The notes under the pieces were generated by a model, which made no database searches, was not told where the DNA came from, and saw only the letters and a program-made list of their open reading frames with translations. This document shows positions 2,024 through 63,857 of a stretch of 64,000 nucleotides of DNA, in pieces. The stretch lies in the sequence record OP312987.1. One strand, 5' to 3'. The DNA comes from Escherichia phage vB_EcoS_Uz-1. Numbering within the stretch: the stretch's first letter is position 1; each line of letters begins with the position of its first letter. A program made the position numbers and the translations under genes.

Positions 2024-2047
2024 AAGGCCCAAACTGGGCCTTTTCTT
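2024..2047. terminator. bidirectional intrinsic terminator between convergent genes
   Basis: Hairpin AGGCCCA-AAC-TGGGCCT followed by TTTTCTT, lying between the stop at 2015 (+) and the stop at 2046 (-). Confidence 0.5.
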
Positions 2048-2672
2048 ATATAGAGTTTACTGTTTGCATTACCTCAACCGATACTGCTGTTAGGGTAATT
2101 ACTTGCCCGGATAAGTTAAACATACCCAACTGAATACCATCTACCATGAAAGGGTCAGATGAACCAAGTGTGTAAGTAGCTAGTACGTTATCCCTATTAG
2201 CTATGTCCGTACCCTGTACCTTAACACTAGTGTCTGAACCAACTACTGTAGTTCCATTGGTTCGTCTTGTTTGTGTTCTCCATTCTCTTGCTGTACCAGC
2301 ACCTCCTGTAATAGTTCCTGATATACGTACACTGAACATTACCTGGGTATTCCTGGTTCTAATAGGGAATTTAAGATTACCTCCTTCAATTGTTAATGCT
2401 GCTGTACCCCCAGGTGATTTAGTTATCCATGGTAATGAAAAGTAATTGAGCCAGGACTGGTCATTTACTACCTGGCTCCCGGTCCATGTATACAAGTCCA
2501 GAAGGAAAGTATCTTCTAACTCTGTTGGTGGGATGGGTAGTAGTTCAGGGGGAAGCTCTGAAACGTTATTAGCAGAAACTATTCGTTCCCCATAGCTTCC
2601 CACGACCAACAAACCACCCTTCATTTTGCACACAACATCCTTACCACTTTGGAAAATATCTTTAATAGACAT
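2046..2672 (-). CDS. hypothetical beta-rich protein encoded opposite to the late module
   Basis: ORF track 2046..2699; the more likely start is the second Met (MSIKDIF) at 2672. Convergent with the tail fiber gene and divergent from the lysis genes. Confidence 0.45.
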   Translation of the reverse strand: MSIKDIFQSGKDVVCKMKGGLLVVGSYGERIVSANNVSELPPELLPIPPTELEDTFLLDLYTWTGSQVVNDQSWLNYFSLPWITKSPGGTAALTIEGGNLKFPIRTRNTQVMFSVRISGTITGGAGTAREWRTQTRRTNGTTVVGSDTSVKVQGTDIANRDNVLATYTLGSSDPFMVDGIQLGMFNLSGQVITLTAVSVEVMQTVNSI

Positions 2673-2796
2673 AGATACCTCGTAGTTGATACCAGACACT
2701 ATGTCTGGATGTACTCCATCATACTAAGTATTATCTAAGAGTCATCTTATGATACGACCCTATTGGGGTTTCTAACTTTACAACTACGGTAATATT

Positions 2797-10338: not shown

Positions 10339-10352
10339 TTGAACCAAGAGGA

Positions 10353-11195: not shown

Positions 11196-11196
11196 T

Positions 11197-14307: not shown

Positions 14308-14319
14308 TAGGAAACTATC

Positions 14320-15186
14320 ATGGCTCAGATAACCTGGCGTAATGTTGATGCACCTAACTTCTCTGGAGTTGGTGACAGCATTCGCACATTTGGCAACATG
14401 ATTGGTAACGCCACCTCCGGCTTAAGTGATGCACTGGGTAATTTCCAGAACGCTGCCAAGCAGGAGGCTGGTAATGCCGTCATGATGAATGCTATGCAGT
14501 ACCAAGACCCAACTGAGTATCGTAATGCATTAGCATCTGGTGCACTGTTTCAGGGGGTTGACCCTTCATTGGTAAACCAGCGTACTCTCCAGAATCTGGA
14601 TGAGCGAGCAGGTACTCTTCTGTCTCAGCAAGGTCAGCAGGGGATCAATGACTACAATGCTTATCGTTTTGGTCGTTTACAGAATACTGACTCTGCATTA
14701 GATAATGCTTCCCCAGCTATTCGTTTACTGTCTGAGGCTTATCAGTCTGGTGACCAGAATCGTATTAATGCTGCATTAGGTCAGACCCGTGAGGCATTAT
14801 CTGCATTACCTGCTGACCAACAACTGGATATGTTGAGTCGTCTACAAGGACAAGGTGGTCAGGCTATTAACCAAGCACAGAATCGTTTTGATTTGGGTGT
14901 GGCTCAACGTAATGATGCGGATAGTCAGGCAGCTATGGGTGTAATGTCACAGATTACCCGTGGTTCTGAGAACCTAATGATGCTCGTTTGTTGGCAGAGG
15001 CGTATAGTAAAAACCTGTCCCCTGTTGCACAGGCACGTTTACAGGAAATGCTTGCTCGTGCATACCGGTGTTTATGGTAATAATGTTGGTGCTACGTCTG
15101 CTCCGGGTACTGCTGGTACTCGTCAGGGTTCCCCTTATGATGTTACTTACCAATTTGCTGGTACATCTACCCTATTACTCAAATGA
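14320..15186 (+). CDS. hypothetical virion protein; possible internal compensated frameshift pair near 14975 and 15070
   Basis: 288-aa ORF. Between about 14975 and 15070 the annotated frame reads as garbage (LMMLVCWQRRIVKTCPLLHRHVYRKCLLVH) while the +1 frame reads protein-like (EPNDARLLAEAYSKNLSPVAQARLQEMLARAY) and is bounded by stops. Confidence 0.4.
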   Translation: MAQITWRNVDAPNFSGVGDSIRTFGNMIGNATSGLSDALGNFQNAAKQEAGNAVMMNAMQYQDPTEYRNALASGALFQGVDPSLVNQRTLQNLDERAGTLLSQQGQQGINDYNAYRFGRLQNTDSALDNASPAIRLLSEAYQSGDQNRINAALGQTREALSALPADQQLDMLSRLQGQGGQAINQAQNRFDLGVAQRNDADSQAAMGVMSQITRGSENLMMLVCWQRRIVKTCPLLHRHVYRKCLLVHTGVYGNNVGATSAPGTAGTRQGSPYDVTYQFAGTSTLLLK

Positions 15187-15446
15187 GTATTGGTGATGTA
15201 ATTAAACACCAGGATGGTATGAAGACGAACCAAGGTGCTTCACCTGTTGGTGCATTCCAAATTAACCAAGCTACTCTGAAAGACTTCGCTCCTAAAGTTC
15301 TTGGTTCAGATTGGCAAAGCCAGCCTCTTTCTCCTGAGAACCAGGATAAGATTGGTAAGGCTATCTTTGAGGCCCGTAAGAATGGCAACCTTAAAGATAC
15401 CTGGGCTGCACTTCCTAACTCTACCCAGGTGCTTATAAGGATATGA
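15183..15446 (+). CDS. hypothetical protein, ATGA-coupled to neighbours
   Basis: 87-aa ORF; start overlaps the upstream stop (ATGA) and its stop overlaps the next start. Confidence 0.4.
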   Translation: MSIGDVIKHQDGMKTNQGASPVGAFQINQATLKDFAPKVLGSDWQSQPLSPENQDKIGKAIFEARKNGNLKDTWAALPNSTQVLIRI

Positions 15447-16279
15447 CTTGGGAACAGATTAAACCTGTTATTGCTCAAGCCGAGGTGGGAGCTGACCCAC
15501 TCGCTATGGTTCAGAATAATCAAGGTAATCAGGCAGTATCTACTCTGGCTCAGGGTATGATTGGTACACGTTCTATGCAGGATAACACCGGTAGTCTTAA
15601 CACTGACTTCCTTGGTACTGTCACTGATAATACCCCAGTAGGTGAGATTGCTAACCGTTTGTTGGAAGGTGACTTTAAAGGTGCTGACCGTAACTGGGTA
15701 CTGAACCGACTGAATGATATTTCTCAACGTGGGAATATGTCACCAGCTATGGCTGCTGCTGTTATGCAACGTGCACAGACCGGTGTTCCAGAAGGTTATA
15801 TTAGTCGTGCTATTGATGCAGTTAACCCATTCATTACCAATGAAGCTGGTAATGGTATGCGTCTTAATGACCGTCTGGTAGATCAGTTAATTGAGGGTGT
15901 ACAACGTGGTGAACCACTGGAAGGTAGTGTGCGTAATCTTGGACGTGCTCAAGCTATGCAGAATATTCAGGCAGCACAGACTGCTTATGATGCTGCTGTA
16001 GCTGCACTGACAAATACCCAGAACAAGATTAACACTGGACAAACTGGACTTACTGCACTGTTACCTGCACGTCAGGAAGCTGTTACTAAAGCTGCTGCAA
16101 TGCTTCAAGCTGCCCAAGCTCAAGTACAGGCTGACCCAGCTAACCTGGCTCCAAGAGGTTTTCAGTCTCAGGCTAGTGTGGACAGGGCACGAGCCAAGGA
16201 AGATGAAGAACGTGCTGCACGATACTTACGTCAGGCACAAGGTTTGCCTGAGTATATGCAACCAAGACAAAATCGGTAA
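15443..16279 (+). CDS. hypothetical virion protein immediately upstream of the virion RNAP
   Basis: 278-aa ORF, A/Q-rich, ending 76 nt before the giant polymerase gene; may belong with the two preceding ORFs as one gene. Confidence 0.4.
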   Translation: MTWEQIKPVIAQAEVGADPLAMVQNNQGNQAVSTLAQGMIGTRSMQDNTGSLNTDFLGTVTDNTPVGEIANRLLEGDFKGADRNWVLNRLNDISQRGNMSPAMAAAVMQRAQTGVPEGYISRAIDAVNPFITNEAGNGMRLNDRLVDQLIEGVQRGEPLEGSVRNLGRAQAMQNIQAAQTAYDAAVAALTNTQNKINTGQTGLTALLPARQEAVTKAAAMLQAAQAQVQADPANLAPRGFQSQASVDRARAKEDEERAARYLRQAQGLPEYMQPRQNR

Positions 16280-16285
16280 TACTAA

Positions 16286-16310
16286 TAAAAGCCCTTCGGG
16301 GCTTTTTTCT
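16286..16310 (+). terminator. intrinsic terminator
   Basis: AAAGCCC-TTCG-GGGCTTTTTTC, a GC stem followed by a T-run. Confidence 0.5.
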
Positions 16311-16354
16311 TAACAGGCTTACTGTAGAGTAAGCTTCCTATATACGATATAAGT

Positions 16355-19300
16355 TTGAACAGGAAACATGCTATGTCAACATTTGACCGTCTGGCAGGTT
16401 TCGCAGACAGCATCACTAATGCTAAGCAAGTCGATGTCTCTACTGCAACCTCCCAGAAGCAAGCTGCACAAGGGCAAAGCCCTTTCCAATTAACCCCAGA
16501 GAATGCTTACAATCTCCAAACAGGTCGTGTAGGTAATCTTGGAATCGGTGCATTCGAACCAGGTTCACTTCAGGCAGATTTCACTCAAGCCTCCCCATTA
16601 GAAATTCTTAATAAATACGGTAATGAGCAAGGTCTACAGATTCTTAATAGCCGAGCTAATGCTGCTGATGCTGTACGTCAGGACTTATCTAAACAACGTA
16701 CTAACGCAGAAGCATTTGGCGATACTCTTTCTGGTGTTGGTCTTGGTGTTGCTAATACCCTTGGGGGCATTGCTGCTCTTGGTACAGGTCTGGTCAATGA
16801 TAATGCCGGGGCATCCATTGCTTCTGGGATGGATTGGCTGAATGAAGGTGTACATAATCTACAGTCTGATGCACTGAATGCTACCCGTAAGGTTGTTCAG
16901 AATCAGAACCAGATTTCTGCACAAAAGAACCAGAAGCTCTATAAGCAAGACATTAAAAATGGGGAGAGCAATTTAGTTGCCTCCTTGTCTCGTATTGGTC
17001 GTGACGCTTTTGATTCTGTTGCTAATACACTCGATAATGGTATGTCTGCTACTGACGGGTTAAGTGAGGGTGTTGGTTCCCTCTTTACTGGTGGTCCACT
17101 CATCCGTGGTGTATCTGCACTTGGTAAAGTAATGGTAGGTGGTAATAAAGCTGTTAAAGGCATTACCCTAGCTGCTGAGTTAGGTTCACGTCCTGCACAG
17201 GTTGCATTGTCTGCTGGTCGTGTTGCTGCACCTGCTATTGCAATTGGTGGTATGGAAGCAGGTGGTGCATACCAACAGACTGCTTCTGAAATCATGAAGA
17301 TGCCCATCAATGAATTGGCAAGTAAGTCTCCTGTTTATCAACAACATATTGCTGATGGTTTATCTCCTGATGAAGCACGTCGTCAGACTGCATCTGAGAC
17401 AGGTATCACTGCTGCTGGCTTAACTGCTCCAGTTGCTGCTGCTACCGGTCCACTGGTATCTCGCTTTGAACTTAACCCACTTAAGGTAGGTTCACTGGCT
17501 GGTGCTGGCTCTAATATGCTGCGTGAAACTGTAGAAGAAGGTATTCAGTCTGGTACAAGTCAGTTTGCACAGAACAAGGCAATTCAGGGTAATGTAGATG
17601 CTAAGCGTGATTTGCTTAAAGGTGTCGGTGAGCAAGCAGGTCTTGGTGCACTTTATGGCTTCGGTAGTGCTGGTGTTGCTCAGGCTCCAGGTGCAACTGT
17701 TAAAGCTGTTGGTGCTTCTGCTGGGCCTGCTTTACGTACTACTCTGGCAGGTGCTTCTCTGGTTGGTAAGGCATTAGCAAAAGTAGCCTCTCCTCTTACT
17801 AACATCCTGGTTCAACGTGGGGAAGAAGTTGCTAAGCGCAATGAGCAAGCATCCCCTGTAGCTGATGCTACGGTTAATGCTGCTGCACAGGAAGCTGCTT
17901 CTCAGGCAGAACAAGCACAGGCAACTGTACAGGAAGCAGTAGATGCAATGGACATCTCTCCAGAAGAGAAGGCTGCTGCTACCCAGTATGCTGCTGACTT
18001 AACTCAGGCAATGAAGTTTGACCCTGTAGAATTGGAACAAGCTAACCCAGTAATCCGTGAAGCTGTTTCTGGTTCCACTAACCGTGTAGAAGCTATTCAG
18101 AAAATGGCTGACTTGGTTAATACTGCTGAAGACCCTAACGTTCAAATGGAAGCTGCAATCCAGATGTATGACAATATCATGTCTATGGATAGCTTCATTA
18201 ATCGTGACCCGGGTGCTCTGGCTAATCTGGAACAGGGATCTCCTGCTGCTACAATCGTAGACCAGTTCTCCGGCCTGATGGCTAACGTACAGAATACCCC
18301 TAAAGTACTTCGTGCATTCCGTGCCATCCATTCCATGATTCAGGAACAGGCTGAAGCAGGTAAGCTGAAGGCTACTGAAGAAGCTAATCAAGCCCAAGCA
18401 AACAACATTGCTATGGCTGCCGATGTATCTCCAGAAGTACTGGATGCAGATTCAGTGAACATGGTTCTGAAACATGCAAGTGAAGGTAAGATTACACTGG
18501 GGAATCGTCAACGTGCTGCCCTGCAATCTGCTGCTGCCTTGTTACAGGGTGCACGAGAGTTCGACGCTAAAGCAGAAGAACTAGGCTTACGTCCTCAGGA
18601 CATTGTTAGTAAACAGATTAAAACCGACGAGTCTCGTTCTAATGAAGGACAGTACTCTGCGTTGCAACATGCGAAACGCATTCGTTCTGCGTATAACTCT
18701 GGTAACTTCGATTTGGCCTCCGCTTATCTGAGCGACTTTATGAAGTTCGCCCAGCACATGCAGAATAAGGTCGGAGCGTTGAATGAGCATCTGATTTCGG
18801 GGAATGCGGATAAGAATAAGTCTGTCCATTATCAGGCTCTCTCGCCTTCCCGTGAATGGGTACGTAGTCGTACTGGTCTTGGTGTCAATCCGTATGATAC
18901 CAAGTCGGTTAAGTTTGCCCAGCAAGTAGGACTGGAGGCCAAGACCGTAGCTGATATTGCTAACGCACTTGCTACGGCTTACCCGGAGCTTAATGTTTCT
19001 CATGTGAAAGTTACCCCATTGGATTCACGTCTGGACAAGCCTGCTGCCCAGGTAGTTAAAGAGTTCCGTCAAGGTGGTCTTGATGCCACTCAGTCTCAAC
19101 AGACTAATGAACCAGTGAATCAGGTTGATGAAACTCCTGCACCTGTGCAAGAGGCCACTACTACTGTACAGCCTAAAGCTAAACCAGTGGTAGAAAATAA
19201 GACTGTTCCTGTTAAGGAGACTAGTTCAAAAGCAGAAGAAGTCTCTACTACCGAATCCGAAAGGGATGCTTATGTGAAAGAAAATACTATTTCACAGGAC

Positions 19301-22300
19301 ATCCTCAATAAGAGTGGTGATCGTAGAGAGAGTCCTTGGCTCTTTGCTGATGGTACTGTTGTTGGTTCTAACGGTGATCACATTAGCCTGTCCGATGTAT
19401 TTGGTCACGATGGTTATCGTGATATGTCTCTGGACACTGGTGCTGTACGCTCCACTTTCTACAAAGGTAGTGAGCAACCATTTGTATCTCTGCAATTGTT
19501 TGATAATCAGAAGTTGACTGCTAAACAGTTTGATACTGTTAAGTCCTTTGTTGATGCTAACAATGCACTGATTCAAGTAGGTGTAGATACTTCTGGTCGT
19601 AATACCAATAACGTTGAGAAGGTAGAGGTATCACTGGCTCAACTGAAAGCAGACTATACTGTTGGTGGTAAACCTTTGTCTGAGATGGAAACAGTGTTCC
19701 CTGTTTATAACAATGACAAGACACCGAACCAGTTCCTTAAAGCATTTACCCTACCAGAAGAACCTAAGTCTCGTACCATTGGCTCTGAATCTCCTTTGAC
19801 TGATGTTAAGAAAGCACTGTCTTCTGCTGCTCGCTTTGAAGCATTCACTCAAAAAGAAAATAACGCTCTCACAAGTGATGTGATTAAGCGTTATCAGGAC
19901 TTAATGGACTTTGGTGAAACCCTGAAGACTACCCTGTCTGACCGTCTGACTAAGTTCCTTGCTAACAAGAATGTCGGTAAACGCTTTGCAGAAGGTACTG
20001 AGGCTAACCGTTGGGTAGGTGGTAAGTTACTTAACATCGTAGAGAAAGATGGGGATACCTTTAAGTTTAATGACCAGTTGTTAGAGACTGCTGTACTTGC
20101 TGGTCTGCAATGGCGATTGACTGCTACACAGAATGCTGCCGTTAAAGATATGAAAGACGTAGCTGCTATTACTGGTGTAGAAGCATCTCTGTTACCTGAA
20201 GGTATTCTGGCTGACTTCGAGAATGCTCAGACCCTGGTTGAAGCTACTAACTCACTGGCTCAAAAGATTGAATCTTATTGGGGTCTGAATCGTAATCCTA
20301 ATGCACCACTGGGTTATACCAAAGGTATCCCAATGGCAATGGCTACGGAGATTCTGTCTTCTCTCATTGAGATGGGTGAAGTTAAAGAATCTATGCTTGA
20401 TGTGTCTGAGATTGACCCAGATTCCAATAAGACTGTTGGTCTGTATACCATTGAGAAGCTGGATGACAATGATGCCATTAATAAATTCCCTACTGCTATT
20501 GAGGAAGCTGTCCTCTTAGAACCAGAAGAGAAAATGTACTTCGGTGACGACATTCCTTCCGTGGCTCAAACTCAGTTACGTAACCCGGCTGTTAAGAATA
20601 CCCCTGAGCAGAAAGCTGCACTGAAAGCCGAACAGGCTACCGAGTTCCGTGTACACATGCCGATGGTTAACTTCTATGAAGCATTGGGACGTGACAACAT
20701 TCTGGAACTGATGGGTGCTGGTACTCTTAACCCAGAACTACTGAACGTGAACACTGCTAAATCTCTGGAAGGTAAAAACCTGTCCGTATCCATGGCATAT
20801 GATTCTCTGTTTGGTGTAATCAGCCAGATACGGGAACAAGAGAATGGACTGGATACACCTATCCATTACGGTTACAACATGACCCGTGTAGGTCGTATGC
20901 AGATGCTTGGTAAGAACAACCCACAATCCAGTAAACTGGTTCGTGAAGCAATCTTACCGACTTTCTCTACTATCGACTTGAGTAATGAAAACAGCCAAGC
21001 GTTCTCTGACTTCCAGTTAGGACTGGCTCAGGCATTAGGCATCAAGGTACATAACATGTCCCGTGAAGCTATGTCTGAAAAGTTGACCAAGGCTCTGGAA
21101 GGTAATCTGAAACCTGCTGTTGATATGATGGTTGAGTTTGATAAGTCTGGGCACTTACCTGCTGATGCAGTAGATATTCTGAAGACCTCCTGGGTGGATG
21201 ATAAATCCTTCGTAGCTCTCATGGCTCTGATGGAATATGCCCGTTACCTGAACAGTGATGACCGTGCCAACTTTACTACTCCACTTTACGTTGAAGCTGA
21301 TGGAGTAACCAACGGCCCGATTAACGCAATGGTATTAATGACTGGTGGTAAGTTCACCCCAGACTGGATTAAGAATACTGCCAAAGGTGGCTTGTTCTTC
21401 GGCAAAGCTGGTAAGACTATGAACGAACATCGTTCACAGGATGACAGTGTTGACCTGTATGAAGCATCTACCAATGGTCTGCAACAAGCCCTGAATGAGT
21501 TACGTACTACTTACCGTAACAACGTTCCGGTTATGAGCCAGATGAATCATCTCCAGAAGTTAATGGACCTGTTCATCAAAGACTTTAACCTGAACGAAGA
21601 CGGTACTCTGGACCTGAAACGTGGTATCGCTAAAAACCCACTGACCATTACCATCTATGGCTCTGGTGCACGTGGTATTGCTGGCAAGATGGTTAGTGCA
21701 ATTACTGACACCATCTATGAACGCTTCAGTGACGTTCTGCAAGCACGGGCTGCTGACCCTAGCATTTCCCCGGCTATGGCAATGTTTGGTAAGGAGGCTG
21801 CGTCTGAGGCTGATGCTCAGGCTATGCTGGATACTTTCCTTACTTCTATGGAAGCACTGACTGGTAATGTTCCAGTTATGCGTAAAGGTGAATTGTCTAT
21901 TCAGCAAGTAGAGGGTGCTCTGACTGGTAAGTTAGACCCTCAGAAATTTACCGTATCCGGTAACGCCCTGAAGAACTTACAGGAGAACATGCTCCATCTG
22001 TTCGTTGAACCAATGCGTACTGGTATCCGTAATACTGTTGGTGAAGGTCTGATGCACTCTACCGAGAACTTGCAGAAGGCTACCCAGATTCAGTCTCTGG
22101 TATTGCAGGATATGTTCCAACAAGCAGTACAGGCTAAGCTGGCAGAAAAAGAAAAAGACCCAACCTGGAAGAAGGGTGATTTCTTAACCCAGAAAGAACT
22201 GAATGAAATCCAGGAATCATTGTCTCCATTGGCTCCAATGATTGAGACTGGTTCGCAGACTTTCTACATTGCTGGTAGTGAGAATACTGATGTTGCTAAC

Positions 22301-25300
22301 CAAGTGCTGGCTACCAACTTAGATGACCGTATGCGTGTGCCAATGAGCATCTATGCTCCTTCGCAGGCAGGTGTTGCAGGTATTCCATTTATGACCATTG
22401 GTACTGGTGATGGCATGATGATGCAGACCCTTTCTACTATGAAAGGTGCTCCGAAGAATACCCTTAAAATCTTTGATGGTATGAACATTGGTATCAACAA
22501 CATCACCGATGCAAGTCGTAAAGCTAACGAGGCTGTGTACACTTCCTGGCAGGGTAACCCTATCAAGAATGTTTATGACTCCTTCTCTAAGTTCATGAAG
22601 AATGTAGACTTCAGCAAACTGTCTGATGAAACCAAACAAGCCATTGCTAAGTCTGCTCTGGAATATGACCAGCGTGAAGGTGCTACTGATGACCTGTTAC
22701 GTGTTGGTGCTGAACAGATTGAACGTAACCTGCGTAACATTGCTCTGGGTGTAGATATTCGCCACAAAGTAATGAACCAGGTACAGACTACTGTTGACCA
22801 GATGGCAGCTGTAGGTGCTCCTTACGTTAATAATGGTAAAATCTCTCTGGAAGGTCTGACCGTAGACCAGCAAGTAGCTAAGCTGAACGAACTGTTTGAT
22901 GCTGAGTTAAACAAGCGTCGTGATGCAGTACGTGCTGCTAAAACAGAACCAGAGAAAGAAGTACCAGCAATGGAACAGGTTGGTCGTGTACTGAAGTCTG
23001 GTGTACGTCTACTGTCTAATACTGCTATCTCTAAGCTGGCTAAAGAGATGTCTCCGGAACAGCAAGCAGTATTGAAAGAAGTACAGAAATCCCTTGCTGC
23101 TAAAGACTACAAGGTTGTTTACGGTACACCTTCTCAACTGGATGCATACGCTATTGAGAAGAATATTACTCGCCCAGCACCGGAAGATATTGAAGCTGCT
23201 GAAGCAGGTAATGCGTATGGCTGGACTAATTTCGAGGATAAGACCATCTACTTAGTTACCCCTTCCTTAGAGACTCTGGTTCATGAATTGGTACATGCTT
23301 CTACTTTTGAATCTGTACTGGCTCACTATGAGGGTACTCCTAATGAAGCAGTCCAGAACATTGAAGACCTGATGAACCAGTTCCGTGCTCTGGATGTTAA
23401 GGATGAAACTCCGGCAGTACGCGAAGCATACGCAGATGCACTTAATACTATTAATGGTCATTTATCTAATGGCTTCATTGAACCAGCAATGGCTAAAGCT
23501 GCTGCATTAAATGAGTACATGGCGTGGGGCTTAACCAACCGTGAACTGATTAGTAAGCAGAAGAAAACTACTGCACTTAAGACTATGGTTCAGGCTGTAT
23601 ACGAAGCAATCAAGCGTCTGGTATTTGGGCGTAAGAAAGCACCAGCTAATGCAGATGATATGTTCTCAGGCTTACTGTTTAACTCTGCTGTAGTAATGCG
23701 TGGACAAGCTCCTACTGCTGCTGTAGCCAAAGATACTACCTTGTTCCATAACAAAGCATACGGTGACAATACTCGTCTGGAAGAGCTAGGGAAAACCTTT
23801 GATAAGTTGATTACTGATTACATTGGCTCAGAACCAGTACAGCAAGTAATTCGTAAAGGTAAGTTCTCTGATGCAGTAGTGAATGCAACTAAAGTAACTC
23901 GTGATGTTCAGGCTCATGGCTTCACTATGAATATGCAGGAACAGCGTCTCTTTACTAACATCGTTGCTGCTCTGGCTATTGAAGCTGCTATTAATCCTGC
24001 TGTCCCGGCTCGTGCACAGGAATACTATACGCATGTTACTAAGAACCTGACTGTTGAAGCATTCATGGCTGACCCAGATAGTACTAACCCTGCTGACCGT
24101 TACTATGCTCAACAGAAGTTCGATACCATCATGGGTGCTAACAACATTGAGTTTGATGCACAAGGTCGTTCTTCCTTACTGCCTACCTTTGTTGGTCTGG
24201 CAATGGTAAGTGAAGAAGTACGTAGAGTATTGGCTGACATTCCAGTTATGAAAGCAGATAAGCAATCCGGTAATACAGTTGATGCAATGCTGACTAACAT
24301 CGGTACTGCTGCAATGGCTAGTCTTAATGCTCGTGTAGCAGGTGATACCAAAGCTACCAACGTACAGGAAGGTATGGATGCACTGGCTCAGACAATCATG
24401 CAGACAAGTCTTAATGCACAATCCTTCTACGATTCCGTTGCTACTCCTAGTGGTAATGCTATTGATCGTGCTAACCAGTATCTGGTGGACTCTATTGATG
24501 TACTGTCTACCCGTGCTTTAGAAGGTGCTCGTGAAGTTGCAGCTAATACTAAGAACCCGTTGGTTAAAGGTGCTGCTCATGCTGCACAACTAATAGCTGC
24601 TATTGCCACAGAAAAGAATGGTGCAATCGTAGCTGAGGGTGTTATGGCTGCAATGAACCAGGGTAAGGTATGGCAACCTTTCCATGACCTGGTTAATGAC
24701 TTAACTGGTCGTACTAAGAGCAATGCTTCTGTATATGATTTGATTAAAGCAGTTCGTGCACAGGTACAAGCTGACCGTCAGCAGTTCCGTGAACATTTGC
24801 CTACCACTATCGCATCTAAGTTCAGCCGTAAGCTTACTAATGATGAGTGGAAAGCAATGCATACTGGTATGGGTAAAGCTGACTTAGCTGTTTTACGCGA
24901 CACTATGTCTCTGGCTGAAATCCGTGACTTGCTGACTGACCAGAAGATTGTTGACCGTGAAGTGAATAAGCTGGAAGCAGACTTGCAGAAACAAGCAGGA
25001 CGTAACTGGCCTCTGATTAGTCGTAAATCTAAGCAACTGGCTCAGTACATGATTAATGGCACAGTTGGTAATAATCTGCTGCGTAATGCTACTGCAATTT
25101 CCCGTATGCTGGGTGAACGTCAGGCTGCACGTTCTACTGTAGATGTAGCTCAACTGGATAAACTGATTACTCTGTATGCACTGGAAGCAATGAGTAAGAC
25201 TGACCGTGAGATGTTATCTTCACTGGCTCAGACAGAAGTTGAGGGAATGGACTTTGCTACTTCTTATCTGGTTGGGCAGCGTAAGGATGAAATGGCTAAA

Positions 25301-27085
25301 GCCAAATCTGATACTCGTGCAACCCTGAACCAGTACAAAGGGTATATCCCCAGTGAGACTAAACAGGGTGTTAACCTGATTGTTGCTGAAGATAGTCAGT
25401 TTGCTGATTTGATTGAGAAGTCCTACGTACGTTTAGGTACATATCAAGGTAGTTCTGCTAATCGTGGTCCAGCACGTAGCTACTATTTTGCACCGGTACA
25501 GGCACAGGCTCCATTCTCACAGGGTATCCTACAGAACGTTCGCAATACTGCTGGTGGTGTAGACCTTGGCACAGGCTTTACGATGGGTTCTATGGTAGCT
25601 GGTCGTATCACTGACAAGCCGTCCGTAGACCGAATCACTAAAGCACTGGCTCGCGGCGAGCGTGGGAATGAACCACTGCTGCCTGTATATGATGATAAAG
25701 GTAATGTAGTTGCTTATGAGCAATCTATTGACCCTAATATGCTGAAGCACATTGAGGGTGAAAATCATCTTGCTCGTGCAATCGGTGTATGGCGTGGTCG
25801 TCAGGTAGAGGAAGCTAAGGCTCAGCGTTTCAACGATATGCTGATTGAAAACCTGCATAACATGTATGAGAACGACATTAAGATGTCTGCCTCTAATAAG
25901 TCCCAGTACGTGAATCTCCTTGGTTCTAAACTGGACCCAGTAACTGCCGATGCACTTAAACTTATGAACAGTGAAACACGTCAGAAAGCTGAAAGTCTGT
26001 TTGGTGAAGGTGAACTGTGGGTACGGCGTGACATGCTGAATGATGCATTGGGTTATCGTGCAGCTTCTGTAGGGGATGCCTGGTCTGGTAATTCTCGTTG
26101 GTCCCCGGAAACACTGGATACCTTCAAGAAAGCTATGCTAGGTGTATTCGGTAACCGTGCTTATAAGTATGTAATGGGTGGTGAGAACCTGGTTCAGAAT
26201 TTAGTTAAAGAAGCCAAAACTCTGATTGTAGTTAAGTCAGTAGTTGTACCTGCTGTTAACTTCTTAGCTAACCTTTACCAGATGGTTGGTCGTGGTGTAC
26301 CTGTTAAGAACATTGCCAAGAGCATTCCACAGAAAACTGCTGAGATTAACCAGTACCTGAAATCTCGTCTGCGTCAGGTAGATGCAGAAGCAGAATTACG
26401 CGCAGCTACTAACCCGAACCAGATTCGTAAGCTTAAGGCTGAAATTCAGTCCATTACTGATAGCCATAAGCGTATGAGTATCTGGCCTCTGTTAGAAGCT
26501 GGTGAGTTCTCTTCAATTGCAGATGCTGGTATTGGTCGTGATGACATCCTGATTACTGAAGGTAAACTTCACGAATACATGGATAAGCTGGCTGATAAGT
26601 TACCTAAGTCTGTACGTAATGCTGGACGTTATGCACTTATAACCAAGGATACTGCTCTCTTCCAGGGTATCCAGAAGACGGTTGAGTACTCTGACTTTAT
26701 TGCTAAAGCAATCATCTATGATGACTTAACTCAGCGTAAAGGTAAGACTAGTGAAGAAGCACTTGGACGTGTAACAGAAGAGTTTATTAACTATGACCGT
26801 CTGCCAGGTCGATTCCGTGGGTATATGGAGAGTGTCGGTTTAATGTGGTTCTATAACTTTAAGATTCGTTCTGCAAAAGTTGCAGTATCCATGATTCGTA
26901 ATAACCCGGTACATGCAGCTATGGCTATGTTGGCTCCAACTCCTACCATGTTTGGTAACGTTGGTCTGCCTATTCAGGACAACATCTTCAGTATTGCTGC
27001 ACAAGGTAATCTCGGTTACTCCTGGGGCTTCGGACAAGGGCTACGTGCCCATAACCTGAACCCTTGGCTCAATCTTACTAACTAA
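16355..27085 (+). CDS. virion-encapsidated RNA polymerase (N4 gp50-like giant vRNAP)
   Basis: Single uninterrupted 3576-aa ORF (10.7 kb) at the end of the structural module. This size and placement is the hallmark of N4-like phages. Polymerase motifs were not verified by alignment. Confidence 0.85.
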   Translation: MNRKHAMSTFDRLAGFADSITNAKQVDVSTATSQKQAAQGQSPFQLTPENAYNLQTGRVGNLGIGAFEPGSLQADFTQASPLEILNKYGNEQGLQILNSRANAADAVRQDLSKQRTNAEAFGDTLSGVGLGVANTLGGIAALGTGLVNDNAGASIASGMDWLNEGVHNLQSDALNATRKVVQNQNQISAQKNQKLYKQDIKNGESNLVASLSRIGRDAFDSVANTLDNGMSATDGLSEGVGSLFTGGPLIRGVSALGKVMVGGNKAVKGITLAAELGSRPAQVALSAGRVAAPAIAIGGMEAGGAYQQTASEIMKMPINELASKSPVYQQHIADGLSPDEARRQTASETGITAAGLTAPVAAATGPLVSRFELNPLKVGSLAGAGSNMLRETVEEGIQSGTSQFAQNKAIQGNVDAKRDLLKGVGEQAGLGALYGFGSAGVAQAPGATVKAVGASAGPALRTTLAGASLVGKALAKVASPLTNILVQRGEEVAKRNEQASPVADATVNAAAQEAASQAEQAQATVQEAVDAMDISPEEKAAATQYAADLTQAMKFDPVELEQANPVIREAVSGSTNRVEAIQKMADLVNTAEDPNVQMEAAIQMYDNIMSMDSFINRDPGALANLEQGSPAATIVDQFSGLMANVQNTPKVLRAFRAIHSMIQEQAEAGKLKATEEANQAQANNIAMAADVSPEVLDADSVNMVLKHASEGKITLGNRQRAALQSAAALLQGAREFDAKAEELGLRPQDIVSKQIKTDESRSNEGQYSALQHAKRIRSAYNSGNFDLASAYLSDFMKFAQHMQNKVGALNEHLISGNADKNKSVHYQALSPSREWVRSRTGLGVNPYDTKSVKFAQQVGLEAKTVADIANALATAYPELNVSHVKVTPLDSRLDKPAAQVVKEFRQGGLDATQSQQTNEPVNQVDETPAPVQEATTTVQPKAKPVVENKTVPVKETSSKAEEVSTTESERDAYVKENTISQDILNKSGDRRESPWLFADGTVVGSNGDHISLSDVFGHDGYRDMSLDTGAVRSTFYKGSEQPFVSLQLFDNQKLTAKQFDTVKSFVDANNALIQVGVDTSGRNTNNVEKVEVSLAQLKADYTVGGKPLSEMETVFPVYNNDKTPNQFLKAFTLPEEPKSRTIGSESPLTDVKKALSSAARFEAFTQKENNALTSDVIKRYQDLMDFGETLKTTLSDRLTKFLANKNVGKRFAEGTEANRWVGGKLLNIVEKDGDTFKFNDQLLETAVLAGLQWRLTATQNAAVKDMKDVAAITGVEASLLPEGILADFENAQTLVEATNSLAQKIESYWGLNRNPNAPLGYTKGIPMAMATEILSSLIEMGEVKESMLDVSEIDPDSNKTVGLYTIEKLDDNDAINKFPTAIEEAVLLEPEEKMYFGDDIPSVAQTQLRNPAVKNTPEQKAALKAEQATEFRVHMPMVNFYEALGRDNILELMGAGTLNPELLNVNTAKSLEGKNLSVSMAYDSLFGVISQIREQENGLDTPIHYGYNMTRVGRMQMLGKNNPQSSKLVREAILPTFSTIDLSNENSQAFSDFQLGLAQALGIKVHNMSREAMSEKLTKALEGNLKPAVDMMVEFDKSGHLPADAVDILKTSWVDDKSFVALMALMEYARYLNSDDRANFTTPLYVEADGVTNGPINAMVLMTGGKFTPDWIKNTAKGGLFFGKAGKTMNEHRSQDDSVDLYEASTNGLQQALNELRTTYRNNVPVMSQMNHLQKLMDLFIKDFNLNEDGTLDLKRGIAKNPLTITIYGSGARGIAGKMVSAITDTIYERFSDVLQARAADPSISPAMAMFGKEAASEADAQAMLDTFLTSMEALTGNVPVMRKGELSIQQVEGALTGKLDPQKFTVSGNALKNLQENMLHLFVEPMRTGIRNTVGEGLMHSTENLQKATQIQSLVLQDMFQQAVQAKLAEKEKDPTWKKGDFLTQKELNEIQESLSPLAPMIETGSQTFYIAGSENTDVANQVLATNLDDRMRVPMSIYAPSQAGVAGIPFMTIGTGDGMMMQTLSTMKGAPKNTLKIFDGMNIGINNITDASRKANEAVYTSWQGNPIKNVYDSFSKFMKNVDFSKLSDETKQAIAKSALEYDQREGATDDLLRVGAEQIERNLRNIALGVDIRHKVMNQVQTTVDQMAAVGAPYVNNGKISLEGLTVDQQVAKLNELFDAELNKRRDAVRAAKTEPEKEVPAMEQVGRVLKSGVRLLSNTAISKLAKEMSPEQQAVLKEVQKSLAAKDYKVVYGTPSQLDAYAIEKNITRPAPEDIEAAEAGNAYGWTNFEDKTIYLVTPSLETLVHELVHASTFESVLAHYEGTPNEAVQNIEDLMNQFRALDVKDETPAVREAYADALNTINGHLSNGFIEPAMAKAAALNEYMAWGLTNRELISKQKKTTALKTMVQAVYEAIKRLVFGRKKAPANADDMFSGLLFNSAVVMRGQAPTAAVAKDTTLFHNKAYGDNTRLEELGKTFDKLITDYIGSEPVQQVIRKGKFSDAVVNATKVTRDVQAHGFTMNMQEQRLFTNIVAALAIEAAINPAVPARAQEYYTHVTKNLTVEAFMADPDSTNPADRYYAQQKFDTIMGANNIEFDAQGRSSLLPTFVGLAMVSEEVRRVLADIPVMKADKQSGNTVDAMLTNIGTAAMASLNARVAGDTKATNVQEGMDALAQTIMQTSLNAQSFYDSVATPSGNAIDRANQYLVDSIDVLSTRALEGAREVAANTKNPLVKGAAHAAQLIAAIATEKNGAIVAEGVMAAMNQGKVWQPFHDLVNDLTGRTKSNASVYDLIKAVRAQVQADRQQFREHLPTTIASKFSRKLTNDEWKAMHTGMGKADLAVLRDTMSLAEIRDLLTDQKIVDREVNKLEADLQKQAGRNWPLISRKSKQLAQYMINGTVGNNLLRNATAISRMLGERQAARSTVDVAQLDKLITLYALEAMSKTDREMLSSLAQTEVEGMDFATSYLVGQRKDEMAKAKSDTRATLNQYKGYIPSETKQGVNLIVAEDSQFADLIEKSYVRLGTYQGSSANRGPARSYYFAPVQAQAPFSQGILQNVRNTAGGVDLGTGFTMGSMVAGRITDKPSVDRITKALARGERGNEPLLPVYDDKGNVVAYEQSIDPNMLKHIEGENHLARAIGVWRGRQVEEAKAQRFNDMLIENLHNMYENDIKMSASNKSQYVNLLGSKLDPVTADALKLMNSETRQKAESLFGEGELWVRRDMLNDALGYRAASVGDAWSGNSRWSPETLDTFKKAMLGVFGNRAYKYVMGGENLVQNLVKEAKTLIVVKSVVVPAVNFLANLYQMVGRGVPVKNIAKSIPQKTAEINQYLKSRLRQVDAEAELRAATNPNQIRKLKAEIQSITDSHKRMSIWPLLEAGEFSSIADAGIGRDDILITEGKLHEYMDKLADKLPKSVRNAGRYALITKDTALFQGIQKTVEYSDFIAKAIIYDDLTQRKGKTSEEALGRVTEEFINYDRLPGRFRGYMESVGLMWFYNFKIRSAKVAVSMIRNNPVHAAMAMLAPTPTMFGNVGLPIQDNIFSIAAQGNLGYSWGFGQGLRAHNLNPWLNLTN

Positions 27086-27091: not shown

Positions 27092-27119
27092 AAGCCCCTC
27101 TATTGAGGGGCTTCTATTT
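27092..27119. terminator. bidirectional intrinsic terminator between convergent late and early/middle units
   Basis: AAGCCCCTC-TATT-GAGGGGCTT with A-run on one side and T-run on the other, between the stop at 27085 (+) and the stop at 27120 (-). Confidence 0.55.
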
Positions 27120-27611
27120 TTACTGAGCTAACACCCAATCTTCTGCTAATACATCTGATTGAGATGGAACCCATGGCATAAACTGGTTATCAACGGTTTT
27201 AATACCCAGCCAATCCCGTTTCTCACAAACGGTATTTTCATGTTTATCCATGGCCCAATTTTCACCAGATACTAAGGTGATATACATTCCTTTTCCGTTC
27301 CAACCTTTACGGGTCATTCTAAAGCCTGATTTGAGAATCTCTACTGCATGACCAAAGGTACAACCTTTTTCTACGTCACGGTATGCAGCTTCGAATGTAG
27401 CTTTAGGTGACCAGCTAATATAGCCACGGAATTGGGGATGGTTGGACTTAGAGTCTGGATACTCGACTAAGTAGCCTTCTTCTAGCGGGTCTTCATCTGC
27501 TGGTACATCCCAACCACGAAGTTTGCAGTATGTTTCTTTGCTCATCGGGAAACCATTTACACACTTGGTTCCAATGTAGTTGGTGAAATGGACTTTAATT
27601 TCTTCTGACAT
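27120..27611 (-). CDS. DUF2829-like phage protein
   Basis: C-terminal KGWNGKGMYITL ... DW motif typical of DUF2829-type phage proteins, recalled from memory. Start re-derived at ATG 27611 with GAGG RBS. Confidence 0.45.
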   Translation of the reverse strand: MSEEIKVHFTNYIGTKCVNGFPMSKETYCKLRGWDVPADEDPLEEGYLVEYPDSKSNHPQFRGYISWSPKATFEAAYRDVEKGCTFGHAVEILKSGFRMTRKGWNGKGMYITLVSGENWAMDKHENTVCEKRDWLGIKTVDNQFMPWVPSQSDVLAEDWVLAQ

Positions 27612-27729
27612 AACTACCTCAAATGAGAAAGCCCTCACTAGGAGGGCTTGTTTTGTTTTGGCTTCATGAGCTTACTACTTTGTCGGGTAGTTCAGTACCT
27701 TTCGGTAAAAACTACCATACACCTTTGAA

Positions 27730-28198: not shown

Positions 28199-28423
28199 TT
28201 AGTAGCTTTAACGCAGCTAACGAGGCTAGGCCAGTCAACTACTACCACTAGTGTTTGTACCAGCGATGCGGGTTGATAGCCCGATAGTAGTAAACTGGGT
28301 TTGAGATTTTTAGTGTTCTCATAGCGAAACCGTCAGGGAGAATAACAATAAATAGAGCCACGGACTGTCTTACCAGTGTTGTCTTTAGAATGCTATGCAA
28401 TCAGGACTATGTTCTCTATTAAT

Positions 28424-28500
28424 GGGTGTCCACTACTGGATTTGAACCAGTGACCTTCCGATTATTAGTCGGTTGCTTTCCCAGTCTAAGCTAAGTGGAC
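28424..28500 (-). tRNA. tRNA, canonical cloverleaf; anticodon reads AAU by hand fold (Ile-type), isotype unconfirmed
   Basis: Minus strand GTCCACT-TA-GCTT-AGACTGGGA-AAGC-A-ACCGA-CUAAUAA-UCGGA-AGGUC-ACUGG-UUCAAAU-CCAGU-AGUGGAC-A. Perfect 7-bp acceptor stem, D-arm, T-arm with TTCAAAT loop; anticodon stem has one mismatch. Confidence 0.6.
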
Positions 28501-58415: not shown

Positions 58416-59234
58416 TTAGTCTTCATTTACTAACTCTTTATCTGCGAACTCTATGACTGCTTTGTTATAAGAGGTTCCCGCATAGTTAATGTGGTATCCA
58501 CAGGCATAGGTTCGCCCACTCTTGTCATACTTATGCGCTAGTGAGAAGTTATTACCTTCTTTGGTCACTAATTCCATTACTTCCTTAGCAGTACGGCTGT
58601 ACTTTTCAAAGGCTTTAACACGTTTCTCATATTCCTGACGGGTTTCACCCTCTTTGGGCTTATCCATATTAGGACGAGAGTCTTTTACATAGTTAGCAAC
58701 GTCCCAGTTAATGCTTAGGCGTTGATTATTCATACGGTTGATATGGTCAAGACAGACATCCATCTCGTGATGGTTCTTCTTGAGGATGATGCTTCCCCTG
58801 CTCTCGTAGTAACCTGTATCACGGTTACACAGAACAGGCTTAGGAGCACTTACAATAGGTAATGGATACTGGAATGCTTCCAGTTCCATCTGAACATCTT
58901 CACTAATCTCATAGATAACACCGAACTTGTCGATGGTAGGGTCATAGTTGAAGCAGTCATTCTCTGCCATCTTATACAGACAGTCAGCAATGTACTGAGC
59001 ATCATCTGAGTGACTCATTAGGGAGCCAATCATAGTCTGAATGTCAGCACGTTTATGTAGGGCAATCTGCACCATTGCATCAATGAGCAGCTTATAATCA
59101 ATTTCCAAATAGGCAGCAAATGCCTTAAAGTCAATTTCTTCGGAGTCCTCAAATTCCTTCCTCATGCGAGGCAGTAATTGATTTTTATTGAATAGGACTT
59201 CAAGCTGCTTCTGATGTTCAATAGATGAGTACAT
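58416..59234 (-). CDS. phage RNA polymerase II small subunit, T7-like RNAP N-terminal half
   Basis: 272-aa ORF immediately upstream of the catalytic subunit on the same strand, AGGAG RBS. Assignment by synteny with two-subunit N4-like RNAP II. Confidence 0.55.
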   Translation of the reverse strand: MYSSIEHQKQLEVLFNKNQLLPRMRKEFEDSEEIDFKAFAAYLEIDYKLLIDAMVQIALHKRADIQTMIGSLMSHSDDAQYIADCLYKMAENDCFNYDPTIDKFGVIYEISEDVQMELEAFQYPLPIVSAPKPVLCNRDTGYYESRGSIILKKNHHEMDVCLDHINRMNNQRLSINWDVANYVKDSRPNMDKPKEGETRQEYEKRVKAFEKYSRTAKEVMELVTKEGNNFSLAHKYDKSGRTYACGYHINYAGTSYNKAVIEFADKELVNED

Positions 59235-62934: not shown

Positions 62935-63315
62935 TTAGAAAGTCAGTTTACGAGCATATTTATTCTCGTCTGCTGGGATGTCAGCAGCCTCTGCTTTCAC
63001 ACGACGAAGTTGAACTTGCAGGTTAATGATACCTTCTTCACCTGGTTCCAGGTTCTGAGCATATTCGATTAACTGTTCCAGCAAATCGTTCTGTGCACAA
63101 CGCATAGCACGGAAGTCAGCATTGCTGCTGTTAGTAGGCAGTGGTTCCTGAGTATCCAGTGGAATACCAGTAGGCAGAGAGATGAATTTCTCATCTTCAG
63201 AGCCTTCATTAGCAATATAACCAATGTTCAACCAGAACTGAGCCTTAGGCTTAGCAGTTTTAGCAGTGGTAGCAGCAGTGTTAGATTGACCGAAAGTGAA
63301 TTTTTGAATAGACAT
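62935..63315 (-). CDS. early protein with acidic C-terminal tail
   Basis: Start re-derived at ATG 63315 (MSIQKF) with GGAGA RBS 8 nt upstream; track ORF 62935..63408 extends further. C-terminus [18 protein letters not shown]; lies 100 nt downstream of a hairpin promoter. Confidence 0.45.
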
Positions 63316-63421
63316 TTTGTACTCTCCAGATTTATGTGATTTACGGGTGAACTCGTCGGTGAGAACACCCAAACAAAGGGATAAAAGTTCAATGATTAGT
63401 GGATGCATTTACATCATCCAT

Positions 63422-63533: not shown

Positions 63534-63857
63534 TTAGTCTTTAGTCAGGATGTCAATTACTTTTGAATATTCTGCGTTATAGATACGAGCGTTTTCTGAA
63601 TCTTTGCAGAATTCCTCAATACTTTTCTTACGCAGAGTCTCGTTCATAGCTGTTTCTTCAGCTAATTTGTTTACGAATGTATGCATTTCTAACTTAGTAC
63701 GGATGGCTTGTTTCTCTGCCATAGTAGATACATATGAGTTAAGCATACCTACTGCTTTAGTAGCTGTGCCAAATGTATCTGCAACAGTAGTAGCAGCTGA
63801 GTTAACAGTACCAAGTAAAGTTCCTGCGGTCATACGTACAGTAGCTTGAGTAGTCAT
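63534..63857 (-). CDS. hypothetical early protein
   Basis: 107-aa ORF directly downstream of a hairpin promoter. Confidence 0.4.
   Translation of the reverse strand: MTTQATVRMTAGTLLGTVNSAATTVADTFGTATKAVGMLNSYVSTMAEKQAIRTKLEMHTFVNKLAEETAMNETLRKKSIEEFCKDSENARIYNAEYSKVIDILTKD

Follow-up and report, generated by a model that had tools for sequence, protein, structure and literature searches.

The window analyzed here, a 64,000-nucleotide stretch of DNA, contains on its + strand a single uninterrupted open reading frame (ORF) from position 16355 to 27085. The ORF listing counts it from a TTG and gives 3576 aa; the absence of internal stops from this 10.7-kb gene had been described in the earlier note. 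Within this frame, the ATG at 16373 has an AGGA Shine–Dalgarno sequence ahead of it (16361–16364), is the annotated start in both close relatives (PhAPEC5 and VTCCBPA_322), and yields an N-terminus that agrees with that of N4 gp50, MS(V/T)FDRLAGF. Therefore, the true start of this virion RNA polymerase (vRNAP) gene is almost certainly ATG 16373 and not TTG 16355. The previously given length of 3576 aa thus holds for the mechanical ORF, and that of the protein is 3570 aa (387.7 kDa), within the range of about 3400–3600 aa for the single giant polypeptide of an N4-like vRNAP. The protein contains no cysteine at any of its 3570 positions, compared with about 33 expected from the other genes of the window; a lack of cysteine is a noted hallmark of vRNAP (PMC2784036). 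The features of the locus and the promoters discussed below are listed in Table 1.

Table 1. Positions of the vRNAP gene, its domains, terminators and candidate cognate promoters in the window
Feature	Position	Strand	Remarks
Intrinsic terminator hairpin between gp51-like gene and vRNAP gene	16287..16306	+	8-bp stem, TTCG loop, T-run
vRNAP gene (N4 gp50 orthologue)	16373..27085	+	3570 codons plus stop; mechanical ORF from TTG 16355
N-terminal domain	16373..19075	+	aa 1–901, corresponding to N4 residues 1–906; colinear alignment
Low-complexity T/E/V/Q-rich linker	19076..19282	+	aa 902–970; equivalent of the first part of N4 linker residues 907–1006 (PMC13434306)
Inserted globular accessory domain	19283..19690	+	modelled aa 971–1106; insertion proper about aa 966–1085
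T7-like single-subunit RNA polymerase domain	19724..22936	+	aa 1118–2188, aligned to N4 1028–2101
C-terminal subdomain C1	22979..23710	+	aa 2203–2446, conserved HExxH (PMC5512222; PMC13434306)
HExxH motif HELVH	23282–23296	+	aa 2304–2308; aligns with N4 2228–2232
C-terminal subdomain C2	23711..27082	+	aa 2447–3570; colinear with N4
Bidirectional intrinsic terminator	27092..27113	both	shared with convergent – strand gene
vRNAP hairpin promoter P3	59266..59284	+	AGCTGC-GGA-GCAGCT, +1 C 59264; upstream of RNAPII subunit gp15 homologue (59234..58416, –)
vRNAP hairpin promoter P2	63420..63440	+	AAGACGC-GGA-GCGTCTT, +1 C 63419; upstream of gp2 homologue (63408..62935, –)
vRNAP hairpin promoter P1	63898..63916	+ (template)	ACATGC-GGA-GCATGT, +1 C 63896; drives gp1 homologue (63857..63534, –)

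The gene is flanked by two hairpin terminators, which the earlier note had placed at 16286–16310 and 27092–27119, correctly to within a few bases. The upstream hairpin, AAAAGCCC-TTCG-GGGCTTTT, is followed by TTCTT and has an RNA minimum free energy of –11.1 kcal/mol (z = –2.3). In a scan for the terminator consensus it was flagged on the – strand alone, since the T tract of the + strand overlaps the stem; read on the + strand, it has the usual form of a stem with a T-run. The downstream hairpin is more stable (–17.5 kcal/mol on the + strand and –18.6 on the – strand, z about –5), carries T-runs on both sides, and adjoins the end, at 27120, of the convergent – strand gp49 homologue (27120–27638). 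Terminators are annotated at both equivalent positions in PhAPEC5. A sigma-70 scan from the upstream terminator to the start codon found no promoter, and the gene may be transcribed by read-through or from an SSB-activated late promoter. We speculate that the upstream terminator may hold vRNAP expression low by attenuation; the N4 virion contains roughly four copies of vRNAP, in line with low expression.

The protein is colinear with N4 gp50 over its full length (66.7% identity across 3471 aligned positions). The comparison with N4 gp50 and T7-like RNA polymerases that had been suggested earlier was positive at every level: phmmer gave E = 0 against the full-length and mini-vRNAP PDB chains 9PNQ, 9PNR, 2PO4, 3C2P and 3Q0A, four Pfam vRNAP domains matched in the central third (N4_RNAP_helical, 6.6e-101; vRNAP_dom_2; vRNAP_dom; and vRNAP_plug, 4.5e-26), and PHROG 2206 ‘virion RNA polymerase’ matched with 4120 bits. 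At the DNA level, 87 phage records matched the gene, and the best (93.9%) was Escherichia phage VTCCBPA_322, a G7C-like member of the genus Gamaleyavirus in the family Schitoviridae, whose annotated vRNAP shares 97.7% protein identity across all 3570 aa. The window and VTCCBPA_322 are colinear almost throughout, with most blocks at 84–98% identity and the lowest at 71%, except for the tailspike region at 1–2035; nucleotide identity and synteny with members of the genus place the window in Gamaleyavirus. Between the gene and that of its nearest relative, 550 codon differences are synonymous and 81 are non-synonymous, and the gene is under strong purifying selection.

The three-part architecture of N4 gp50, namely an N-terminal domain, a T7-like RNA polymerase and a C-terminal domain with HExxH, is retained. 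In N4, the N-terminal domain binds the membrane and is needed for injection (PMC13434306). A Kyte–Doolittle scan of this domain found no strongly hydrophobic 19-aa window, with maxima of 1.47 in N4 and 1.38 in the protein studied here; this simple measure thus gave no confirmation of the proposal that N4 residues 224–278 form membrane-spanning helices. The zincin-like HExxH subdomain at the C-terminal side has been described for vRNAPs (PMC5512222; PMC13434306), and encapsidation in N4 depends on the mostly helical C2, which also autoinhibits the polymerase (PMC13434306; PMC5512222).

Within the central polymerase domain, the catalytic residues of N4 vRNAP (R424, D559, K670, Y678 and D951; PMC2784036), whose aspartates the earlier note had proposed to locate, are all conserved in identical local contexts as R1508, D1643, K1754, Y1762 and D2035. 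They fall into the TxxGR motif (T1504–R1508), motif A (D1643), motif B (R1750/K1754/Y1762) and motif C (D2035). The residues with which N4 reads its promoter hairpins (K114, R119, W129, D901 and R904; roles from PMC4496689) correspond to K1199, R1204 and W1214, which read the hairpin loop, and to D1985 and R1988 of the specificity loop. Identity to N4 peaks (0.87–0.90) at residues 1901–2100, a stretch that takes in D2035 of motif C and the residues of the specificity loop. The polymerase motifs, the hairpin readers together with the plug module, the C-terminal HExxH and the absence of cysteine thus all correspond to an N4-type vRNAP. As a caveat, the protein has N at the position of mini-vRNAP K267, which we take to be a DNA contact, and the lysine is shifted by one position.

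An N4-like vRNAP had been expected to come with hairpin promoters, and three were indeed found upstream of the gp1, gp2 and gp15 homologues, syntenic with P1–P3 of N4. The three GCGGAGC sites (at 59272, 63427 and 63904) belong to the template strand, are situated ahead of early genes and have 6–7-bp stems, 3-nt GGA loops, G at –8 and –10, R at –11 and C at +1. In N4, the P1 loop is GAA (GCGAAGC), whereas all three promoters here have GGA. The 7-mer GCGRAGC is not above chance in the whole window (4 found compared with 5.6 expected); the promoters are supported by where and on which strand they lie, by their flanking stems and by the +1 C. The fourth GCGRAGC, at 23421 inside the vRNAP gene, was rejected as a promoter, since its flanks pair only as GC/GC and form no inverted repeat.

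The gene order gp53-gp52-gp51-vRNAP, followed by the convergent gp49/gp48, tRNAs and SSB, is that of PhAPEC5 and N4. The gene was said to close the late module, and indeed no gene of the + strand virion/late block comes after it; it faces the replication genes in convergent orientation, as it does in N4. The RNAPII genes gp15/gp16 and the SSB gene gp45 are also present.

Homology, motif conservation, promoters, terminators, synteny and purifying selection, all observed here, lead us to conclude with great confidence that the ORF encodes the virion-encapsidated, injected vRNAP (the N4 gp50 orthologue) of a G7C-like coliphage of the genus Gamaleyavirus, Schitoviridae, acting through the N4-like mechanism set out below. 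The initial reading of the element as an N4-like phage is likewise upheld by the gp50 homology, the vRNAP motifs, the context and the hairpin promoters, and nothing contradicts the assignment. By analogy with N4, a few copies of the vRNAP would be packaged in the capsid via the C-terminal domain. Upon receptor binding, they would leave through the tail, following the gp52- and gp51-like ejection proteins, and the vRNAP would become anchored to the inner membrane by its N-terminal domain. In the cytoplasm, the central T7-like polymerase would then refold and recognize the three DNA hairpins (template-strand loop region 5΄-GCGGAGC-3΄, with C at +1), presumably extruded by gyrase supercoiling and stabilized by host SSB. 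Transcription of early genes from these hairpins, including the gp1, gp2 and gp15/gp16 (RNAPII) homologues, would help genome entry, and the C-terminal domain would, again as in N4, subsequently damp polymerase activity.

Many shorter genes had been reported to carry apparent frameshifts, and these are present in the sequence: about 13 indel events break seven genes, including gp51, gp53, primase, DNA polymerase, rIIA-like and ATPase genes, compared with none in the 10.7-kb vRNAP gene. This contrast, together with the strong purifying selection on the vRNAP, could indicate a decaying or defective N4-like phage with real frameshifts, in which the vRNAP stays intact because it alone is selected or has been co-opted. 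Real frameshifts in the gp51-like and gp53-like ejection genes would make the phage non-viable and its vRNAP undeliverable. However, deletions account for 12 of the 13 events (eleven single-base and one two-base), and most lie in or beside short homopolymer runs (CCC to CC, TTTTT to TTTT, GGG to GG), which is the signature of under-calling. The broken genes keep 90–100% protein identity in each frame segment and thus show no sign of decay, and N4-like phages are, to our knowledge, strictly lytic, so that there would be no resident copy to decay. The vRNAP gene also has fewer homopolymer runs (33 against 42 per kb), and only 1.1–2.1 errors would be expected in it, with P(0) = 0.13–0.33; the emphasis that the earlier note placed on its being intact among frameshifted genes is accordingly not justified. 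Because almost all events are 1-nt deletions, mostly in short homopolymers, and hit essential genes, the frameshifts are probably sequencing errors caused by homopolymer under-calling, and we regard phage decay as highly improbable. As sequence-quality problems, they call for repair, and not interpretation, of the gp51, gp53, primase, DNA polymerase, rIIA-like and ATPase gene calls.

Among the large polyvalent proteins of phages and conjugative elements, N4-like RNA polymerases fused to variable accessory domains such as ART, lysozyme and PBECR have been described (Iyer et al. 2017, PMC5512222). The HExxH domain of the protein, and its accessory domain shared with polyvalent proteins, might suggest a generic injected protein whose polymerase module is no longer active, with another enzyme performing early transcription. 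This is more improbable still, to the point of being negligible, given that the five catalytic and five promoter-reading residues are all conserved, that identity to N4 is highest in the very region with motif C and the specificity loop, and that the cognate hairpins upstream of early genes retain every known determinant. The gene is an ordinary intact copy of the giant vRNAP of N4-like coliphages. This main result matters only as annotation (a G7C-like N4-type phage, the start codon, the domain map and three promoters), and the sole unusual feature is a small extra domain.

This 120-aa insertion, which N4 lacks, lies in the linker that joins the N-terminal domain to the polymerase, where the N4 linker (residues 907–1006) is partly replaced; the protein is 70 aa longer than N4 gp50. 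The vRNAPs of the Gamaleyaviruses G7C, Bp4, ECBP1, PhAPEC5 and VTCCBPA_322 share 91–94% nucleotide identity with the gene, have the same length (3570 aa in VTCCBPA_322) and contain the insertion, and the gene differs from these G7C-type vRNAPs by point substitutions only. In contrast, the PGN829.1/PhAPEC7/IME11-type vRNAPs of the same genus, near-identical in sequence on either side of the linker, are 3450 aa long and cleanly lack the domain; the natural junction in PGN829.1 shows that a vRNAP can do without it.

An AlphaFold model of the insertion from a 19-sequence alignment predicts a confident fold (pLDDT 92); a single-sequence model was poor (pLDDT 51.7) and was discarded. A word-indexed protein search with a 155-aa query spanning the insertion retrieved no homologues. 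Those used here came from an exhaustive search of representative proteins and share 30–64% identity, with S987, P988, L990, G994, D1002, H1003, R1026 and Q1052 invariant. They occur inside metagenomic giant polyvalent proteins of 1000–3700 aa, of the kind described in PMC5512222, which also carry LPD22/38/39, SLT, InPase, ddrB-ParB, and SNF2-helicase plus methyltransferase domains; on a P22/SU10-like podophage contig, one such protein is encoded where the virion module ends. The insertion also differs in its placement, being found in the linker that precedes the polymerase and not in the C-terminal region. The 19 members matched none of the Pfam LPD, PBECR or ART models even at E ≤ 5, and no Pfam family or solved structure matched the inserted domain.

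Any role of the domain is speculative. The invariant SPWL..G, DH, R and Q, and its occurrence in giant proteins of unrelated phages, whether ejected or polyvalent, leave some room for a doubtful but possible reading as an undescribed, horizontally exchanged effector module, an injected cargo that might be, for example, nuclease-like or host-factor-binding at the inner membrane during DNA entry. If so, its presence or absence among near-identical Gamaleyaviruses would reflect selection by host defences. Recent structural work on N4 depicts vRNAP as beads on a string passing through a channel of ∼35 Å, with a disordered 100-residue linker that tethers the polymerase to the membrane. The inserted domain, which would enter the cell together with the polymerase, adds a further folded bead to this very tether. 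It is a modest lead, and close relatives that carry the domain and others that lack it are available for comparison.

The earlier note had taken the long open frame for the gene of an N4 gp50-like virion RNA polymerase (vRNAP), and similarity searches bore this out. The protein matched the solved N4 'Virion DNA-directed RNA polymerase' structures with E = 0; full-length N4 PDB chains were matched in two stretches that jointly cover nearly the whole chain, and mini-vRNAP crystal chains were matched as well. Four vRNAP-specific Pfam domains (N4_RNAP_helical, 6.6e-101; vRNAP_dom_2; vRNAP_dom; vRNAP_plug) lay in the middle third, and residues 25-3569 matched phrog_2206 'virion RNA polymerase' in PHROGs (4120 bits). 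Aligned globally with N4 gp50 (the translation from NC_008720), the protein was colinear and 66.7% identical, with a peak of 0.87-0.90 over window-protein residues 1901-2100, which include the motif C aspartate D2035 and specificity-loop residues. DNA-level matches were found in 87 phage records, the best being Escherichia phage VTCCBPA_322 (93.9% across the whole gene), followed by PhAPEC5, U1G, PD38, Bp4, ECBP1 and others; these phages all belong to Schitoviridae, Enquatrovirinae, Gamaleyavirus. The vRNAP of VTCCBPA_322 is 97.7% identical over all 3570 residues, and its codon differences, 550 of them synonymous and 81 non-synonymous, indicate strong purifying selection. The identification is correct, and the gene is an ordinary find: its type is well known, and the genus of the phage is well sampled.

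Polymerase motifs, including the catalytic aspartates, were present as proposed. PMC2784036, which attributes the list to Kazmierczak et al. 2002, gives R424, K670, Y678, D559 and D951 as the catalytic residues of N4 mini-vRNAP, spread over motifs T/DxxGR, B, A and C. They correspond to R1508, K1754, Y1762, D1643 and D2035 when the mini-vRNAP numbering is offset by 997, as derived from PDB alignments, and the local sequence context is identical to N4 around all five. Counterparts of the hairpin-reading promoter-recognition residues of N4 (K114, R119, W129, D901 and R904; PMC4496689) are K1199, R1204, W1214, D1985 and R1988. The HExxH motif described in C-terminal subdomain C1 (PMC5512222, PMC13434306) appears as HELVH at residues 2304-2308. 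Cysteine is absent from the 3570 residues (16373-27082), compared with about 33 expected from its frequency in ten other window genes; this absence is a noted property of N4 and roseophage vRNAPs (PMC2784036).

The single frame at 16355..27085 on the + strand, 3576 aa when read from a TTG, contains no internal stop, so the gene is intact as claimed, and only its start had to be moved. An in-frame ATG at 16373, 18 bases past the TTG and preceded by AGGA at 16361-16364, is the annotated start in both close relatives compared (PhAPEC5 and VTCCBPA_322), and gives the N-terminus MSTFDRLAGF, in agreement with MSVFDRLAGF in N4 gp50; the product is therefore 3570 aa and 387.7 kDa. Hairpin terminators flank the gene, as the earlier note had it, and are annotated at both equivalent places in PhAPEC5. 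The upstream hairpin folds with -11.1 kcal/mol (z = -2.3), and the downstream one with -17.5 and -18.6 kcal/mol on the two strands (z about -5); the latter is a bidirectional terminator, common to the vRNAP gene and the convergent gene ending at 27120. A scan found no sigma-70-like promoter in 16307-16372, the stretch from the upstream terminator to the start codon; the gene may be transcribed by read-through of the terminator or from a late promoter activated by SSB. The upstream terminator may keep vRNAP expression below that of more abundant virion proteins.

Features located in the window (breaks are relative to VTCCBPA_322)
Feature	Position	Strand	Description
Small gene fused to neighbour (ORF 2046..2699)	2529		1-nt insertion
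gp53-like gene	12299		break
gp51-like gene	14976, 15067, 15171, 15428		breaks
Upstream terminator hairpin	16287-16306	+	AAAAGCCC-TTCG-GGGCTTTT, then T-run
Inserted domain	19283-19690		vRNAP aa 971-1106; linker between N-terminal domain and RNAP; 120-aa insertion
Downstream hairpin	27092-27113	both	9-11-bp GC-rich stem, T-runs on each strand
tRNA-Ile (AAT)	28423-28501	-	ARAGORN
tRNA-Cys (ACA)	29202-29280	-	ARAGORN
tRNA-Ala (CGC)	29572-29643	-	ARAGORN
Primase	35023		break
DNA polymerase	38153, 38533, 40080		breaks
rIIA-like gene	45303, 46733		breaks
350-aa ATPase	53636		break
P3 hairpin	59266-59284	+ (template)	AGCTGC/GCAGCT stem, before gp15 homologue
P2 hairpin	63420-63440	+ (template)	AAGACGC/GCGTCTT stem, before gp2 homologue
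P1 hairpin	63898-63916	+ (template)	ACATGC/GCATGT stem, before gp1 homologue

The earlier note had considered it notable that so long a gene is intact while shorter ones carry apparent frameshifts. Such frameshifts do occur: compared with VTCCBPA_322, seven genes are broken by about 13 indels. Deletions account for 12 of the 13 events (a single base is lost in eleven, two bases in the twelfth), most indels coincide with or adjoin short homopolymer runs (CCC to CC, TTTTT to TTTT, GGG to GG), and the protein segments on either side of the breaks are 76-100% identical to the reference. The frameshifts hit several essential genes, and N4-like phages have a strictly lytic life cycle. The simplest and most likely reading is that the frameshifts are sequencing errors, with homopolymers under-called in the assembly of the source. 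Homopolymer runs of at least three bases number 354 in the vRNAP gene and 2218 elsewhere in the window; when 7-13 events were scaled by run count, 1.1-2.1 indels were expected in the gene, and the probability of observing none is thus 0.13-0.33. The contrast with the frameshifted genes is real but unremarkable.

The hairpin promoters that the earlier note expected were located. In N4, the vRNAP promoter is a hairpin on the template strand whose loop is 3 nt long, determined by -8G, -10G, -11A/G, +1C and a G:C pair closing the loop (PMC4496689); on that strand, 5' to 3', it reads C-N7-GCGRAGC. The template strand of the N4 left end has exactly three copies of the 7-mer, at 93, 562 and 4551, preceding gp1, gp2 and gp15 (0.34 matches expected by chance). 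Since the early genes of the window are on the - strand, its template is the + strand, on which GCGGAGC was found at 63904, 63427 and 59272, directly upstream of the gp1, gp2 and gp15 homologues. In all three predicted promoters, a 6-7-bp stem carries a GGA loop, and a C stands exactly 8 nt to the 5' side of the first G; alignment of these with N4 P1-P3 left CC, AA and GCG.AGC as invariant columns. Over the whole window, the 7-mer count is at chance (4 found, 5.6 expected), and the case for these promoters rests on position, strand, stems and the +1 C. A match within the vRNAP gene, at 23421, is the fourth; it is without a stem and was discounted.

By analogy with N4 (PMC13434306, PMC4496689), vRNAP most likely works as follows. 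About four copies would be packaged in the virion; after receptor binding, expelled gp52 and gp51 would build a trans-envelope channel, and vRNAP would come next, its chain partly unfolded into 'beads on a string'. The N-terminal domain would remain at the inner membrane, while the polymerase and C-terminal domain would refold in the cytoplasm. Transcription from the P1-P3 hairpins, extruded by gyrase and stabilised by SSB, would express the early genes and help pull in DNA, and the enzyme would afterwards be autoinhibited by its C-terminal domain.

The protein departs substantially from N4 at one place only, the linker that joins the N-terminal domain to the polymerase domain, where approximately residues 965-1117 stand in place of N4 ~971-1027 (net gain of about 97 aa in the global alignment); N4 residues 907-1006 form a low-complexity disordered tether (PMC13434306). 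A three-way alignment including PGN829.1, of the same genus (vRNAP of 3450 aa), showed identical flanks and a clean 120-aa presence/absence, with boundaries ...STTESE[RDAYVKEN...GGKPL]SEMETVFPVY. N4 and the PGN829.1/PhAPEC7/IME11-type Gamaleyaviruses lack the domain. In the phage collection, the linker segment matched 54 records, all Gamaleyavirus-type phages; it was full-length in 28 (G7C, Bp4, ECBP1, PhAPEC5 and others), and in PhAPEC7, IME11, PGN829.1 and UE-type phages the match was limited to the conserved tail.

Neither Pfam, even at E<=1, nor a word-indexed protein search returned a match to the inserted segment, whereas an exhaustive search of 1.84 billion representatives yielded 20 proteins with the domain. 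Most are metagenomic giants of 900-3700 aa carrying polyvalent-protein domains (LPD22, LPD38, LPD39, SLT, InPase, ddrB-ParB, SNF2 helicase plus methyltransferase); domain identity to these and to a distant schitovirus vRNAP is 30-64%. The closest homologues outside vRNAP (P0002-P0004) share 60-64% identity. P0004, a 3253-aa polyvalent protein with ddrB-ParB, LPD39, methyltransferase and the small inserted-type domain, is encoded at 10001-19762 of the P22/SU10-like podophage contig L007 (ENA metagenome contig NODE_43, 42.9 kb); it lies at the end of the virion module, adjoining P22-type antirepressor and Arc genes, and is probably a giant protein that is ejected as well. A distant N4-like contig of 74.7 kb encodes P0015/P0021 as its vRNAP, with the domain at the same place relative to the polymerase. 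In an alignment of 19 sequences, S987, P988, L990, G994, D1002, H1003, R1026 and Q1052 (vRNAP numbering) were invariant, and AlphaFold run with this alignment predicted a compact alpha/beta domain (pLDDT 92, pTM 0.87). Searches by fold and by profile gave no convincing match: Foldseek against PDB returned nothing at E<=0.001 for the model, BFVD returned only the pSb-1 orthologue, a profile against PDB sequences gave a best E>=0.04, and no Pfam family was common to the 19 members. Because fusions of N4-like RNAP modules to variable accessory domains (ART, lysozyme, PBECR) were described by Iyer et al. (PMC5512222), the general theme is already known; our literature search found no description of this linker domain or its tether position, although one may exist. 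Among the readings compatible with the evidence, the most interesting is a possible role as cargo or effector, and the domain offers a small, testable lead beyond ordinary vRNAP identification.

As the earlier note had placed it, the vRNAP gene closes the late/virion block: it is the last + strand gene of 2797-27085, following lysis, portal and capsid genes and then gp53-, gp52- and gp51-like genes, and the - strand genes converge on it. These comprise gp49 and gp48 homologues, three tRNAs, SSB, primase, DNA polymerase, helicase, rII-like genes, RNAPII subunits and early genes; N4 has the same arrangement in reversed orientation. Positions 63458-64000 align to the reference genome at its two ends (1-410 and 71973-72512), so the right end of the window reaches the terminal-repeat region, on the side of the genome where the early genes lie. 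At the tailspike/tail-fibre position, a 663-aa ORF (24-2015, + strand) is unlike its counterpart in the nearest relative: only about 100 N-terminal residues align, at 57% identity, the remainder has no DNA match, and Pfam gave no hits. It is probably a swapped host-range module. The three tRNA genes lie in a poorly conserved stretch from the gp48 homologue to the gp47/gp46 region, and PhAPEC5 has a tRNA-Ile annotated at the equivalent place.
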